Shown here: positions 21,052-34,599 of the stretch, one piece after another
Position numbering within the stretch: the first letter of the stretch is position 1
Layout of the letters: each line of letters begins with the position of its first letter
Source of the DNA: Amphiscolops sp. MND2022
Lineage: Eukaryota
Length of the DNA stretch: 64,000 bases
Assembly (NCBI GenBank): GCA_964187785.1
Contig: OZ076409.1
Location: 620,001-684,000, forward strand
Direction: 5' to 3'
Notes under the pieces: model-generated
What the model was told of the DNA's origin: nothing
The model's database searches: none
The model's input: the letters and a program-made list of their open reading frames with translations, nothing else
Made by a program: the position numbers and the translations under genes

Positions 21052-21486
21052 ATGAATTATTTGTCATTCAAAAAATTTGTTGAAAAATATGGATTAAAAG
21101 ATGAAGCAACTTCTAATGTAAAGATTAAAGAAATCCTAGACACGCTAAGCACGCAGAGCGCCTCCGGTGCATTCGGTATACTCAAATTAAACTCAACCGG
21201 GATATACATGAGAGATGATAAGTTTACCACCACATCAGGTATAGTTAACTTACATCCAACTAAAGGAACACACTGGGTTATGTTTTCTGATAAGTTTTAT
21301 TTTGATTCATATGGATGCCCACCTCCAACTAATATACTCAATCACATAAATAATGGTATTTATTCAGAATATCGAATTCAGAAAAATGACAGTTATTGCG
21401 CAGCCTATTGTTTGTACGTGTTGTATCTCGCAATTATAATTGGCTTTAAAAATGCAGGACTAAATTTATACTACCAAAACTTATGA
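21052..21486 (+). CDS. Adenain-like cysteine maturation protease (Polinton PRO)
   Basis: GIVNL...GTHWV...YFDSYG...IQ...YCAAYCLY gives His, Asp, Gln and Cys in adenain order. Confidence 0.9.
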   Translation: MNYLSFKKFVEKYGLKDEATSNVKIKEILDTLSTQSASGAFGILKLNSTGIYMRDDKFTTTSGIVNLHPTKGTHWVMFSDKFYFDSYGCPPPTNILNHINNGIYSEYRIQKNDSYCAAYCLYVLYLAIIIGFKNAGLNLYYQNL

Positions 21487-21733
21487 ATAGTAAATGAAGA
21501 AAATTAAAAGTTATTCAGCTCAATATAAAATCATCTCAGAACAACCCAATCAAAACCAGCCGAATACAGCTTCGCTGGCTTTGCCTGAGTCTGCAAAAAA
21601 TAATCCGAATCCGAAAAAAAATTATCGAAACAAAACCAAGAATTTATAAGTAAAATATCCGAAAGTGGATTCAAACAATTTAATCTATAATATGCGAAGC
21701 TTAGAAAAAAATTACTCATTTTTTTTCTAATAA

Positions 21734-22823
21734 ATGGATCTATCAAATTTTGTAACCTATGATAAAAAGGAATCTTTTTTGTTGAGTATTGCAAAATCTA
21801 ATCGAGAAATTGTTGAAATTACCTTATCCCAACCACAAGAAACTTTAGAGTTTAAAATGAATAAACAAAAAGAATCTTTTTCATTTGATATTCCATTGGA
21901 ATTGCCTGAAAAATGGATGATGGGAGTAACCAGTTTAGAAGTATACAACAGTGTTTATAATATTACCAACAAAAACAACTCATTCCAGATACAACTAACA
22001 GACGAACAACTTAGTGGGATTGATACAAAACTTGTAATGAAAATTGAATTCCTTCATCGAACCAAACATTCGAATTTTCTTGAAACAGTTTATAATTTAT
22101 TGGATTCCTCATTTAAATATAAAAAGAAGCTTCTAAAAAATGATCTTGATAAAATCAAGGATATAATTAATCAGTATAAAAATGAAGAATGGCGGACGAG
22201 AATACCAAATTCCTTGTGAATACAATACAAATCCCATCTTTCGAAACTATTGATCTCCCCATTATGAATGAGAAAATAGAAATAAAACTCCAACCTGGAA
22301 TATGTGAAATAACTGATCTGAATACAACAATAGAACAAAAATTACGATATTAAAGCCAAGCAAATGGAGAATTTAAAATAAATGGTCTAAATACCGAAGG
22401 CGCTTTGCGTATTAACATTGAAGCAGATACAATATCAATGAAATCAATTTTAACAACTTCTAATCCCATTTATTTTAATTCAAAATCAAATAACTTCTAG
22501 GATTCACAAATACACACTATATACATGGAACTCATATATCAGAAAAACCAGTTATGATAACAACGACAGACAAAGTTCATCTGAAATGTGATTGTGTAGA
22601 TGGTTCAATTGTTAATGGTATACGAGAACAAATCTTGTTTAGTTTTAATCTTTCCGCCCCACCATGATATAAAATTATAAAAGAACCTAGTATTATTTTA
22701 TACAAAAAGATAAACAAAACAAGGTTAGATAGTGTTCAATTTTTCCTTGAGGACTCTAACCACAACCCAGTTGATTTCAATGGGGAGACATAAATTTTTA
22801 CAATTCAAATCGTTAAGATTTAA
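21734..22823 (+). pseudogene. Minor capsid protein (penton, single jelly roll), frameshifted with stops
   Basis: N-terminal FDIPLELPEKWMMGVTSLEVYNSVYNIT; C-terminal VHLKCDCVDGSIVNG...LFSF...IKEP...LYKKI...NPVDFNGE. These resemble Polinton mCP motifs. Confidence 0.8.
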
Positions 22824-22893
22824 ATTATTTATTATTTTTTCTATTACAAACCAATGGTTTGCTTAGAAAAAATGAATAATTGTTTTCTAATAA

Positions 22894-30469: not shown

Positions 30470-30619
30470 CCGAAATTGCTTTGCATATGAGAAATAAATT
30501 TATAAAGAAATAAATATATTTATGAGAAATAAATTTATGAATAATATTTATATATAAATAAAAAATGTTAATAAGGAATCTCTGATATATATAGTAAGGA
30601 ATCTCTGATATATAGAATT

Positions 30620-33600
30620 ATAGAAGATGTGCTCGATCACTTATCCGTTTTAAAAGCTGTTGATGGGTCAGGGTTTGTTTCCAATACCAAACATTCAAAT
30701 AAGTTTCTTCATCACTCAATCCATCACTCAATTCTTTATAATACAAAACAACTAATTTCAAACAATTTATATATGGACAATCACCTTGTTGTGTGTGCTT
30801 ATCCCATGAAAACTTTGTGTTTCATTTATATGCAGACGTTTATCATCAAAAGGATTCAAAGCTAGTTTGTTTTGTTTTTCAAATGTGAGGTTGTGTAATT
30901 TAGATCTATTTGATACATTTGTAGAACTTGATGTTTGAGAGTTAAACAAACTGTTTATATAGTGTGCGTATTTTGGTGTATGTTGTATTCCTTTTGGTTT
31001 TGCTTTTTCTACAATACTGGAGGCGCTTTGCGTACCATTCGGAATAGAAGTATAACTAAAAGAATACGACTTTGATCGTAAAGCTACAAAACTGTCTAAC
31101 ACCAAAAGTGGCTTGTTTCAATTTTCATTTTTCCTATATCTTTCTTATTTGTGGGATCATACAACTCATGGGATTTGTCTAATTCACTGAAATCAAATTT
31201 ATCTTTGGTTTGTTTTAAAAACTCGATCAGATTTTCTTGATTTGTATCAAAACAAAGTATGAAAGAATCAGTATCCATGTAGTGTATTTGTACTTTATTT
31301 TGCCAAAATGGTTCTAAAGTATGATGATAAAATTCATACAATAAAAATTTTGATAGTTCTAAATTCGTAAAACCTAAATTAATTGGTTTGTCGAAGAGTG
31401 TTTTTTTTGTGATATTTGTACACACTAAATGAATGGTAATGATCCACAATACCTTTGAAACTTAACTTGGATTGTCTGTTTATTATTTGCTCAATTTTGG
31501 AATGATGAATGAAGTCTAGGTTGGTTCTATCTCTTACATTTTCCATTGTCTTGCCAAAGAAAGCATTGTTCATTAAGTTATACAGGTCTTTTTCAAAGTT
31601 TGTTTTTACTACTGTGCGTTTTTTGGTGTTGTGATCAATATACTTTTCTAAGCAGTTGTCTTGCTTGAATCGATACACACAGTGAATCTTTGTTACTTTC
31701 ATTCCCATGCTGATGTAAAATTTGAATACCCTATAATACATCATGTATTTTTGTTTGTTTGTTACATCACACATCAATTTGGGGATGGGTTTGTAGTTAG
31801 TTTGTTTTACACTATTCATATAATCTGAGAAAAGATTAGGATCTGCTTTTGTTTAATAAAGGACAAAGTGGAAAGTTTTCGGTTTTTTCTTTAATTTCAA
31901 CAGGATACTCTAAATCATTTTCTATAAAAAATCCACTCTCATTATTGTCTGGTACTCGTAAAAAATCTTCCACTATTTGCTCTAGTTCATATGCGTCTGG
32001 AAGTTGTAGCTTTTCGAATTCTCCAGTTGGAAGGTATTGACTCAAAGCCCATCCATACAAATTATTTGCATCAATGTATGAGATTTGTTTATTTTCATTT
32101 GATTCAACAAATCGATCTCCCATTACACTTGAGATGCCTCCCCGTATATTGTTTTCTAGAAGTAGTAGTAGGTCTTTATCTTTTATAAAATCTAACTTTA
32201 TGTTAGTTAACTTTAATCCAGCTTTCCATGTATAACCAGGAAGCGAGTAACTATACAAAGGATTATTATTATATTCTCGTCTAGAACTTTAAACAAAGTT
32301 TTCGATTACATTTGCTACTTGTAAAACATCCATTTTTAAATATAACATAGTAAGTTGTTGGGGTGTTGTAATGTTGCATTTGTCAATTAATTGTTGAGTT
32401 ATTTTTATATCATCATCACACGGGTAAGATTGTGTTAATGTTGACCAATAATCTTCTTTAGTTAAATTTAAAGGTTGAGACAAGGAATCTATCGATATGT
32501 TTTCAAGATTGAATTTTTCATATGGATAAACTAATTTCTTCTTAAACAAATTATCAGTTAAACCCGCGGAGTTCATATACCTGAAAGTATCCAGAGATGC
32601 TATTGGTTTTTGTAGACTTGATGAAAGAAATCGGTATGAATCCAGTAAACGTAAGCACCCTACTTGAACTGATACATAGTTTTCAAGACTTTTAGGTATA
32701 ATATTTATTGCCAACTTTAGATTATAAGCTTGTGTTAAGAGTTCTTCAAGTATAAGATGACAATCATACCCAGAAAAGTTATGGAAAAATATAGGAACAA
32801 AACTTGATGACTTTTGTTTTACATTTATGTTACATATATTATGAGCTGCTCCTCTGTATTTGCCTGTTAGATGATCATGATCTCTAACCTTAGTATCATC
32901 GAGTGGATTTTCACAAAACCAACACTCCTCTGCAAGTTGAAATGATTCTTCTTCTTGAGGAGATATTTGTAATTGTGGGTTTGTTTTAAAATAGTTACTA
33001 GCAATTTTTTCTAAAGTCAGCATTTCATTTACAAAACAACTGATACAGCTTTGCTGCCTTCCGGTATAGCTTTGCTGCCCTTCGGTGCAATCTACTCCGA
33101 AGTATGAATTATACTTGTTTCCAAATGGTGAAATTATACAACATCCTACTGCAATTGGAATTTGTTTAAATAATACTTTAGGGTCTTTTTGAGGTTGATT
33201 AATACATTCAAAATCAGCATAAACTCTGATCGGGAGTGGTAGTTTTATAGGGTGATCTTCAAACTTTAGATGTTCCTACTTACTGAATGTGATATTAGTT
33301 GGTTGTTGATTGATACATCTTTCCATGTGATCAACTAGAACCAATTGTGAACTAAATGCTGTTAAACATCTTCTACATACATGTTTCATGTGTGAATCTT
33401 TATTTATTAATTAATGTATTTTTGTAATTAAACAATAGTGGTTTTTGTATAACATTAAATCACTTTGTGGTTGTTTGTGATTTTTGTTAAAATGAATTGG
33501 TGTTAAAACATTTCCAGTGAGTTCAAATACGTTCATACCATGACCTCTGATATTCAATTTATTAGGTCTTTCAAATTTGGGAATGTCTTTGACTTTCATA

Positions 33601-34434
33601 GGGAATTCTAAACCTTGTATTTTAAGATTATTTTCATACATTAAATAATTTGATGTTCTATCTTTATGATCCTCAACAGGATATAAATATGCTAGGATAC
33701 ACCATAAAAAACAATATTGATCAATATTTTTTATATTTTTATTTGATTTGTTATTCTTATATTTTGGTGGTAATTCAACCCACGAAGATGCTTTAATATC
33801 ATTAACTTTATATATTTCTAATATAACTTCTTCTATTTCTTCAAATCGAAAACCTGATCCTTCTAAATGTTCATCATCTATTTTCTGCAATAATTTGTTA
33901 TGAATTTCTTGTTGCGTACTATTGTTATATATTAGATCTGATTTTATCCATCTTTTAAAAATTTCTTGTTCTCCGTTGATGTGTTTTATAAACTTAGCTC
34001 AATAACTCAATTGATGTTTAAATTGGGGAAAGTAACTTTTACTATGTAATTCATTTATGTTATGTTCAAGATTTTCATCTGGATTTATTTCAAGTTTATT
34101 GTATGTTCTCTCATTCATAATTATTTCTACTTCAGTACCGGATGTACCAAACTGTGTTTCCCGTTGGCGGTTTTGACTTTTTTGGATATGTTTTTCACTT
34201 TGGATATGTCGTGTTTTATCAGATATATTTTTACCACAATCTTCACACCATACTTTATTCTTTTTGTTTTTATGTTCCTTTGAATTTAGATGGGAATTTT
34301 TACATGATAAGGACATATTTAAATTACAATTTTTTATTGATTTAATTTTTCTTGATGACCTATTGAATTTATATGATCGGATTTTTAGATTTTTCATAAT
34401 TTGAATTACAAATAATACAATTCTCCATTTCCAT
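30620..34434 (-). pseudogene. Protein-primed family B DNA polymerase (pPolB), fragmented
   Basis: EGSGF, NIDQYCFLW, VYADFEC, HDHLTGKYRGAAHNICN, FHNFSGYD, YIDANNLYG, LMNNAFFGKTMEN, YMDTDS, LRSKSY and FDDKR occur in order, with N-terminal Zn-finger-like repeats. Confidence 0.95.
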
Positions 34435-34599
34435 TTGTTAAGGAGAAAATAGTTTAATTAAAAAATTTTCAATGATAATTTTTCAAAAAAATGAAAAAAA
34501 AATATTTTTCTCACCTGTGCGTTCAAGGTGCGAAAATTTGTCAGAGAAAAAGTTATTCATACCGGAGGTGCTTTGCATATTCTGGATATCTAAAATTTT

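Follow-up and report, generated by a model that had tools for sequence, protein, structure and literature searches.

A window of 64,000 nucleotides (nt) of Amphiscolops sp. DNA, positions 620001-684000 of contig C1 in a 1.07-Gb assembly of 1929 contigs, contains an integrated copy of the virus-like transposon Polinton/Maverick. Scattered through this AT-rich Polinton are GC-rich units of only 18 or 21 nt, which are the subject of this report; coordinates are those of the whole window unless a contig is named. The units fall into three families: an 18-mer (ACGCNNNGCGCCTYCGGT) and two 21-mers, 21a (ACAGCNNNGCTGGCNNNGCAT) and 21b (ACAGCNNNGCTGSCYYCCGGT). All nine 18-mers and all ten 21-mers of the original prediction are present at the coordinates it gave and with the sequences it had read, and the peptides it named (TQSAFG, TEGAWR, PKALGV and CKASEAVCVASFAV) all occur in the translations. 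Unit lengths are multiples of three in all three families and most units lie inside genes, as it had also proposed. The units are listed below (ORF, open reading frame; MITE, miniature inverted-repeat transposable element).

21151..21168, plus strand: exact 18-mer unit within the protease-like ORF, contributing TQSASG
21566..21586, plus strand: 21a unit, 1 mismatch, between ORFs
22393..22410, minus strand: 18-mer unit, exact
23298..23318, plus strand: 21a unit, 2 mismatches, just past the stop of ORF 22989-23294
24834..24851, plus strand: 18-mer unit in ATPase 1 (a minus-strand gene); adds PKALGV; filled in 3 copies, cleanly empty in 22
25037..25057, plus strand: 21b unit in ATPase 1, with TGGQQSC added ahead of the Walker A motif; present in 10-12 copies
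25376..25417, plus strand: two 21a units in tandem (25376-25396, 25397-25417), upstream of ATPase 1
25629..25649, minus strand: 21a unit with 2 mismatches, close to the 3' end of the A32 ATPase gene
26055..26072, plus strand: decayed 18-mer, 3 mismatches, in the A32 ATPase gene, adjoining a host MITE
26618..26659, plus strand: two 21a units in tandem within the A32 ATPase, contributing CKASEAV+CVASFAV (fragment residues 73-86)
27980..27997, plus strand: 18-mer unit, exact, in ORF 27815-28342; adds TQSAFG
28022..28039, minus strand: 18-mer unit, exact, in ORF 27815-28342; adds TEGAWR
30469..30486, minus strand: decayed 18-mer, 5 mismatches, beginning on the last base of the capsid-gene stop codon
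31016..31033, minus strand: 18-mer unit with 1 mismatch, in the C-terminal portion of pPolB
33045..33086, plus strand: tandem pair of 21b units in pPolB; adds TEGQQSY+TGRQQSC
34561..34578, minus strand: 18-mer variant, 2 mismatches, with T-A replacing C-G in stem 1, upstream of pPolB

The integrated Polinton

The segment 20753-36207 is an integrated Polinton/Maverick. Both the long terminal inverted repeats (TIRs) and the 6-bp target site duplication (TSD) expected of such an element are present, and the core genes rve integrase, protein-primed PolB, A32-like packaging ATPase, double-jelly-roll capsid and cysteine protease were counted as present. Base composition sets the element apart, with GC ~0.22-0.32 across 21-36 kb against ~0.36-0.48 in most of the flanking DNA. 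With its TSD and its location on a 104-Mb contig, the copy is nuclear-integrated and not organelle-resident. Its main features are the following.

20753..36207, plus strand: integrated Polinton/Maverick copy, 15,455 bp, GC ~0.28, TIR beginning AG; carries all units
20753-20970 and 35990-36207: Polinton TIR arms, inverted repeats of ~218 bp each
20747..20752 and 36208-36213: left and right copies of the 6-bp TSD GGCTCG, from end alignment
26943-27800: rve integrase (Pfam E = 1.7e-11)
26284-26874: A32-like ATPase, Pox_A32 (Pfam E = 2.4e-8)
29702-30469: double-jelly-roll capsid domain (Pfam E = 1.6e-10), in the capsid gene 29418-30469
32289-33275: type-B polymerase, a weak DNA_pol_B_2 match on a broken fragment (Pfam E = 0.0047)
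24135-24334: run of 200 N (assembly gap) separating ORF 23443-24134 from ATPase 1, in which any unit would be invisible

The protease-like ORF had no match in Pfam. Translation showed that frameshifts or in-frame stops break several of the Polinton genes. Alternative genetic codes (tables 6 and 4) did not repair the reading frames, and the copy is therefore simply decayed. The N-terminal part of pPolB contains an HNH or endonuclease VII-like motif, CWFC...DHDH...HNICN, at residues ~115-151 of the fragment 32289-33275 (minus strand); the Pfam Endonuclease_7 match (E = 0.001) is under the curated cut-off. A phmmer search of the pPolB fragment against PDB gave no match at E <= 1.

The right non-coding arm carries several repeats of ~70 nt at 34700-35310; query 5621-5694 matches three places here as well as sister copies. 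Directly to the right of the Polinton, at ~36800-48000, is a long tandem array with an 86-nt period. It shows staggered identical ORFs of 85 amino acids, a flat composition and a GC skew of ~+0.23.

Distribution, polymorphism and target of the units

The window was scanned with the three motifs at up to three mismatches. Inside the Polinton ACGCNNNGCGCCTYCGGT had 8 matches, ACAGCNNNGCTGGCNNNGCAT 8 and ACAGCNNNGCTGSCYYCCGGT 4; these lists share two units and so cover 18 of the 19, the unit at 30469 (5 mismatches) being missed. The 48.5 kb of the window outside the Polinton had no match to any of the three. Exact matches in the whole assembly numbered 1000 for the 18-mer (478+522), 1026 for 21a (510+516) and 519 for 21b (248+271), or 2,545 when summed, and reversed-pattern controls gave 0/0 for each motif. 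When three-kb loci around 18-mer matches outside the window were aligned by blastn, 25 of 25 matched the window's Polinton at 66-93% identity. Another eight isolated 18-mer matches were all homologous as well, one of them over 83 bases near the TIR alone. Polinton homology was thus found for 33 of 33 sampled 18-mer matches, from ~20 distinct regions of contig C1, among the matches listed. The restriction to Polintons, which the original prediction had read from the window, is well supported for this sample, short of a full census. A count of GC islands proved too noisy for the purpose, because host flanks lie within the loci and 21a units are just ~52% GC.

Host elements can enter the Polinton, as the nested MITE demonstrates. 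This 224-nt TIR element at 26075-26298, with ends CATTAGAGTGCATAGGCAAGC ... GCTTGCCTATGCACTGTAATG and internal GGATTCCACG repeats, splits the A32 ATPase gene. Unlike the units its family is genome-wide, with 2161 first-look candidates and 39 scored copies elsewhere that are 91-92% identical. An 805-nt relative of the MITE is inserted at a different place in the sister copy L057. In the window and the sampled loci there was no sign of units moving from the Polinton into host DNA.

Scans of IMG/VR with the 18-mer and 21a motifs gave at least 120 and 47 loci, all of them single matches in a context of median GC 0.59. Since no locus ever had more than one unit, these matches are at chance level. 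The sole AT-rich match (L217) lacks a second unit or a unit-like GC island. Metagenome contigs searched for the exact commonest 18-mer likewise gave chance-level matches (35, all single, GC 0.44-0.70), and a protein-guided search of IMG/VR with the ATPase alignment found P-loop-level matches only.

Searching the assembly with the segment 24340-29000 returned 3835 first-look candidates. An alignment of 30 copies was built from the window copy and 29 sister copies, which come from 12 contigs and are 81-89% identical to it. Across these copies 94 units fall into 34 site clusters, most of which are occupied in some copies only. At five sites a single copy carries the unit and 28-29 lack it; the alignment opens there by exactly 21 columns between cleanly matching flanks, and the nearest empty relatives are 92-96% identical over 800 columns. 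The window shares its unit at 24834 with two other copies, and 22 copies have a clean gap of 18 nt in its place. Where the window has the tandem pair at 26618, most copies show a clean 42-nt gap and one has a single unit. In the well-aligned part, a motif-blind scan of rare insertions returned GC-rich ones of 20-21, 39 or 42 nt, and all of these were units. The sister-copy alignment thus shows clean presence or absence of 18, 21 or 42 nt, and in the proteins clean indels of 6, 7 or 14 residues. It is supported that the units are inserted DNA and not ancestral coding sequence.

The loop variants of the singleton insertions recur elsewhere, the AAA/TAC variant for example at three different sites. 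New units are therefore copied from old ones. New units also often abut older ones, and tandem arrays reach up to five identical 21-mers. At C1:33267986-33268090 five identical 21a units stand head to tail over 105 nt, so units are able to expand like a minisatellite. A 20-nt GC-rich variant was seen beside a 21b unit in two loci (L034 and L046) at ~27789, in the intergenic stretch between the integrase and ORF 27815. This single case hints that variants whose length is not a multiple of three may survive only outside genes.

The insertion target was read from units with distinct contexts. An 18-mer is preceded by a pyrimidine in 57 of 58 cases (T 40, C 17) and followed by a purine in 56 of 58 (A 41, G 15), and the 21-mers show a similar flanking-base preference. 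The target is a pyrimidine^purine step, mostly T^A, and the unit itself runs AC...GT or AC...AT; the T and A belong to the target since they are adjacent in empty sites. C at -1 and G at +1 vary independently, and position 18 is T in 58 of 58 although one mismatch was allowed. These bases make a true TA duplication less likely. At 13 clean sites the mean junction microhomology was 2.08 nt versus a null of 0.85 nt at random Polinton positions (P ~0.0008), which is explained equally by insertion of AC...GT into T^A or by terminal direct repeats (a TSD).

Known insertion routes were compared with these junctions. Insertion by a retroviral-type integrase was ruled out, as the units have no 4-6-bp TSD, and so was the excision footprint of a larger transposon, as the unit ends are not inverted repeats of each other. 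A MITE or other TIR DNA transposon does not fit either: each unit is an internal palindrome, 18 or 21 nt long and without distinct TIRs, and a TSD is ambiguous.

Coding effects and palindromic structure

Of the 18-mers 56 of 58, of the 21a units 29 of 39 and of the 21b units 29 of 29 have no stop codon in any of the six frames, compared with fractions of 0.37, 0.15 and 0.31 in shuffles; as units share descent, stop-freedom is really a property of three founder sequences. Given a length in multiples of three and this near-universal lack of stops, insertion in a gene adds just 6-7 residues. Units are translated in differing frames and from both strands into unrelated peptides, so they have no function at the level of the protein. 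Relative to gene sense the 18-mers show no orientation bias (14 vs 13, a hand count from the site list).

The A32 ATPase was compared with homologous proteins. A search found 393 homologues, and 23 of the 120 listed, spanning the identity range, were aligned. At the position of CKASEAV-CVASFAV, 10 of the 23 have a clean 14-residue gap and two have one 7-residue unit; 11 more distant homologues have unrelated linkers of varying length. The inserted peptide does not align without gaps to distant homologues and is instead a clean 7- or 14-residue indel. In an AlphaFold model (mean predicted local distance difference test, pLDDT, 67) the insert at residues 73-86 coincides exactly with a segment of pLDDT < 50, bounded by the Walker-A helix (60-76) and the strand that follows it (89-93). 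The unit pair is thus predicted to form a disordered loop.

The capsid gene has no unit sites in ~33 copies, versus 4.0 expected by its length (P = 0.018). Counted as occurrences, which are not independent, the figures are 0 versus 27 expected from average density. The genes next to it are dense with units, and ATPase 1, ORF 27815 and pPolB are the unit-richest regions. An empty capsid gene among dense neighbors suggests that selection removed insertions while the genes still worked, i.e. before the copies decayed.

The description of the units as double mini-hairpins stands as sequence symmetry. In folding with ViennaRNA DNA parameters only the first hairpin forms, with energies between -2.0 and -2.6 kcal/mol and z-scores that mostly lie from -1 to -2 versus shuffles, and the 2-bp second stem was never predicted. 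One unit reaches -4.6 kcal/mol by pairing across modules. Random Polinton 20-mers folded in the same way have a mean of -0.34 and a first percentile of -3.0. The unusual hairpin stability that had been claimed is not borne out by these predicted energies; the CCGAAGG strand does contain the C-GAA-G motif known from stable GNA-triloop mini-hairpins of the d(GCGAAGC) type, and nearest-neighbor parameters may miss special triloops. Loops do flip in the descriptive sense that AAA and TTT both occur, but inversion as a mechanism is unsupported for 21a, in which TTC is common while GAA is absent.

Conservation of stem 1 was measured on units anchored by the second module only (CCTYCGGT), which guards against ascertainment bias. 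There were 121 anchors, 82 of them of the 18-type, and pair 2-10 in these 82 is C-G in 60, T-A in 10 and A-T in 5. Stem 1 has 18 double-change Watson-Crick cells versus 2.6 in shuffles, a number reached by 0 of 2000 shuffles, in a count that takes orthologous units more than once. Pairing of stem 1 is plausible from these covariations, and a palindromic protein-binding site would look alike.

Interpretation and comparison with known systems

The units are best explained, with a probability of about 0.6, as GC-rich selfish insertion elements of very small size (18 or 21 nt), resembling GC clusters and living only in the AT-rich Polinton lineage. The elements are built from palindromic modules. 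As the aligned copies show directly, whole units have inserted repeatedly, in either orientation, singly or head to tail, at pyrimidine^purine steps that are mostly T^A. New units are templated by existing ones, and units persist where proteins tolerate them, as in loops of the ATPases, ORF 27815 and pPolB, and not in the capsid gene. Because host DNA is without units, we infer that they spread during the Polinton's own virus-like replication and not in the integrated state; the filtering at the level of genes agrees. Speculatively, the copying step may take place where palindromic modules pair, in single strands or in DNA that is locally melted, and may proceed through template switching or a structure-specific nick, for which the HNH/EndoVII-like motif of pPolB would be a candidate enzyme.

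A bolder form of this proposal is doubtful. In this form no mobile DNA element described so far would be smaller than the units, whose specific sequence is 16-19 nt, and they would be obligate parasites of a eukaryotic virus/transposon. They would be mobilized on single-stranded replication intermediates by a Polinton-encoded activity, either template switching by pPolB or nicking by its HNH/EndoVII-like domain at the foot of paired modules, and would thus be the counterpart, in a eukaryotic virus, of single-strand transposition guided by hairpins. Their stop-free design in multiples of three would have evolved to colonize a near-wholly coding genome.

A link to strand-displacement replication predicts that unit orientation switches at the midpoint of the genome. 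Counted by site, 18-mer strands are +9/-6 left of the midpoint and +4/-10 to its right (p = 0.14), and all unit types pooled are +24/-12 and +7/-15 (p = 0.015). Among pairs of opposite-strand 18-mers within 14 kb, drawn from the first 100 genomic 18-mers, the order "+ then -" is seen 40 times vs 22 for the reverse (p = 0.03).

Several observations weigh against selfish insertion as set out here. The same pair test runs the other way in 21a units (14 vs 24), and as the polarity of the two families disagrees the strand-displacement link is unproven; orientation polarity as a replication footprint, pursued three ways, was dropped. Of the earlier proposal of a micro-mobile element spread by pPolB strand displacement, mobility is supported, in that the units are polymorphic and confined to Polintons, and the pPolB part is speculative. 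Besides the Polinton's own integrase no transposase was found by Pfam in the 21 ORFs of the element, nor any HUH/Y1 transposase family at E <= 0.01, the rest of the genome lying outside this search. No insertion was seen between two copies of one integration event, so that activity before integration is something we infer. The predicted hairpins are weak, and only one of the two forms. Stem 1 also has 23 one-sided changes; its T-A pairs can arise through CpG decay at two symmetric CpGs and its A-T pairs resemble module swaps, and together with the repeated counting of orthologous units these leave its pairing short of proof. The sampled genomic matches come from contig C1 only, in an incomplete census. 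Finally, the units may bring a distributed benefit to the virus.

On another reading the units are not selfish but selected cis-acting viral signals, serving for example in packaging, in pausing or priming on displaced strands, or in protection of single-stranded DNA. The ~9-19 units per copy are spread along the genome, some stand at gene ends (23298, 30469, 25629), stems or palindromic halves are kept while loops vary, and the 18-mers have a weak left/right polarity. This reading is nevertheless unlikely, since most sites are filled in a minority of copies, many being singletons, and positions are not conserved; the same facts weaken the idea of structural signals on displaced single strands that the original prediction offered beside mobility. 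Most units are moreover inside genes in both orientations, with no gene-sense bias, 21a polarity is reversed and predicted structures are weak. Units that arise as by-products of repair or replication errors would require no dedicated mobility at all. They would be templated from a nearby unit by microhomology switching, in the manner of polymerase theta-mediated end joining or of fork stalling and template switching, and both insertion orientations, the junction microhomology of 1-5 nt, the arrays of up to five identical units and the frequent placing of new units beside old ones would follow. Yet inserts always have the same ends and the full 18 or 21 nt and are never ragged, and host DNA, which is under the same repair, lacks units in the sample. 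The singleton at ~26737 stands in a copy whose neighboring 26618 site is empty, although a donor elsewhere in that copy is possible. Error by-products are on this evidence quite improbable.

The polymorphism would run in the opposite direction if the units were ancestral and were lost by precise hairpin- or repeat-mediated deletion. Short flanking repeats (TA, GTA, TGT) could drive precise slippage loss, and some loss is probably real. As a general account deletion is very unlikely: five sites filled in one of 29-30 copies, in lineages 80-96% identical, would each demand numerous exact deletions that arose independently. One and the same 18- or 21-mer, further, occurs in unrelated genes, frames and orientations, and in the A32 ATPase 10 of 23 homologues have a clean gap while 11 distant ones have unrelated linkers. 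Hardly credible is that the units are removed or ignored at expression, as micro-introns or by translational bypass like the "byps" of Magnusiomyces. According to one report, elements derived from GC clusters are bypassed in translation in one yeast mitochondrion (PMC8811140). The boundaries here are AC...GT or AC...AT and not the GT...AG of spliceosomal introns, a length in multiples of three and six-frame stop-freedom would be needless if the units were removed, and units occur outside ORFs too.

Selfish insertion of short palindromes has several known parallels. The IS200/IS605 and REP/RAYT elements have hairpin ends, need no TSD, insert by a short specific sequence and use single-stranded DNA at replication. 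The analogy is functional only; the units are far shorter, reside in a eukaryotic virus and have no HUH/Y1 transposase in the ORFs of their element. Rickettsia palindromic elements are in-frame palindromic repeats that add peptide segments to protein genes, as the units do. In contrast to the units they are ~100-150 bp long, bacterial and chromosomal, and they have no homology to them. The double-hairpin or repetitive hairpin elements of fungal, sponge and other mitochondria consist of two adjacent hairpin modules and invade AT-rich genomes, their sporadic distribution being the ground for regarding them as mobile; these differ in being organellar, longer and mostly intergenic, whereas the units have marginal predicted hairpins.

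In Polintons themselves no earlier description of such units was found in the literature, subscription-only papers and Repbase notes aside, in line with the novelty that had been claimed. Palindromes reported in a preprint on virophages and Polinton-like viruses are terminal and 52 nt long, and differ from the internal units.

The closest likeness is to the GC clusters of yeast mitochondria, and the analogy to fungal mitochondrial elements drawn in the original prediction fits well: both are palindromic and polymorphic in an AT-rich setting. In two accounts (PMC4478555, PMC8811140), GC clusters, of which GC42 is an example, are GC-rich palindromes in AT-rich mitochondrial DNA, flanked by AG, TAG or ACT repeats that are interpreted as target duplications. 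Their stems are conserved while loops evolve fast, modules merge and shuffle, tandem arrays form, and var1 has in-frame insertions. The units share with them the polymorphic GC-rich palindrome in an AT-rich genome, kept stems with fast-changing loops, the merger and shuffling of modules, the tandem arrays and in-frame insertion within genes. The clusters described there are ~30-60 nt compared with 18 or 21 nt here, and reside in mitochondrial DNA, as against a nuclear-integrated Polinton and a T^A target. They occupy spacers, whereas the units are mostly in genes; the two are likened by description, and a sequence relationship is not expected.

For work on Polintons the units have immediate uses. 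They are practical markers with which to date and group Polinton lineages, and they are a warning for annotation, since a short in-frame indel of GC-rich sequence in a Polinton protein is parasitic DNA and not a feature of the protein. One genome offers a tractable system, with thousands of units of 18-21 nt at clean sites in hundreds of diverged carrier copies. Target choice, copying and selection on protein loops are readable from sequence and can be tested with oligonucleotides. The GC-cluster phenomenon would thereby be extended from organelles and Rickettsia to a eukaryotic virus-like transposon, and the invasion of AT-rich genomes, genes included, by selfish palindromic mini-elements would then be a general outcome and not an oddity of organelles.

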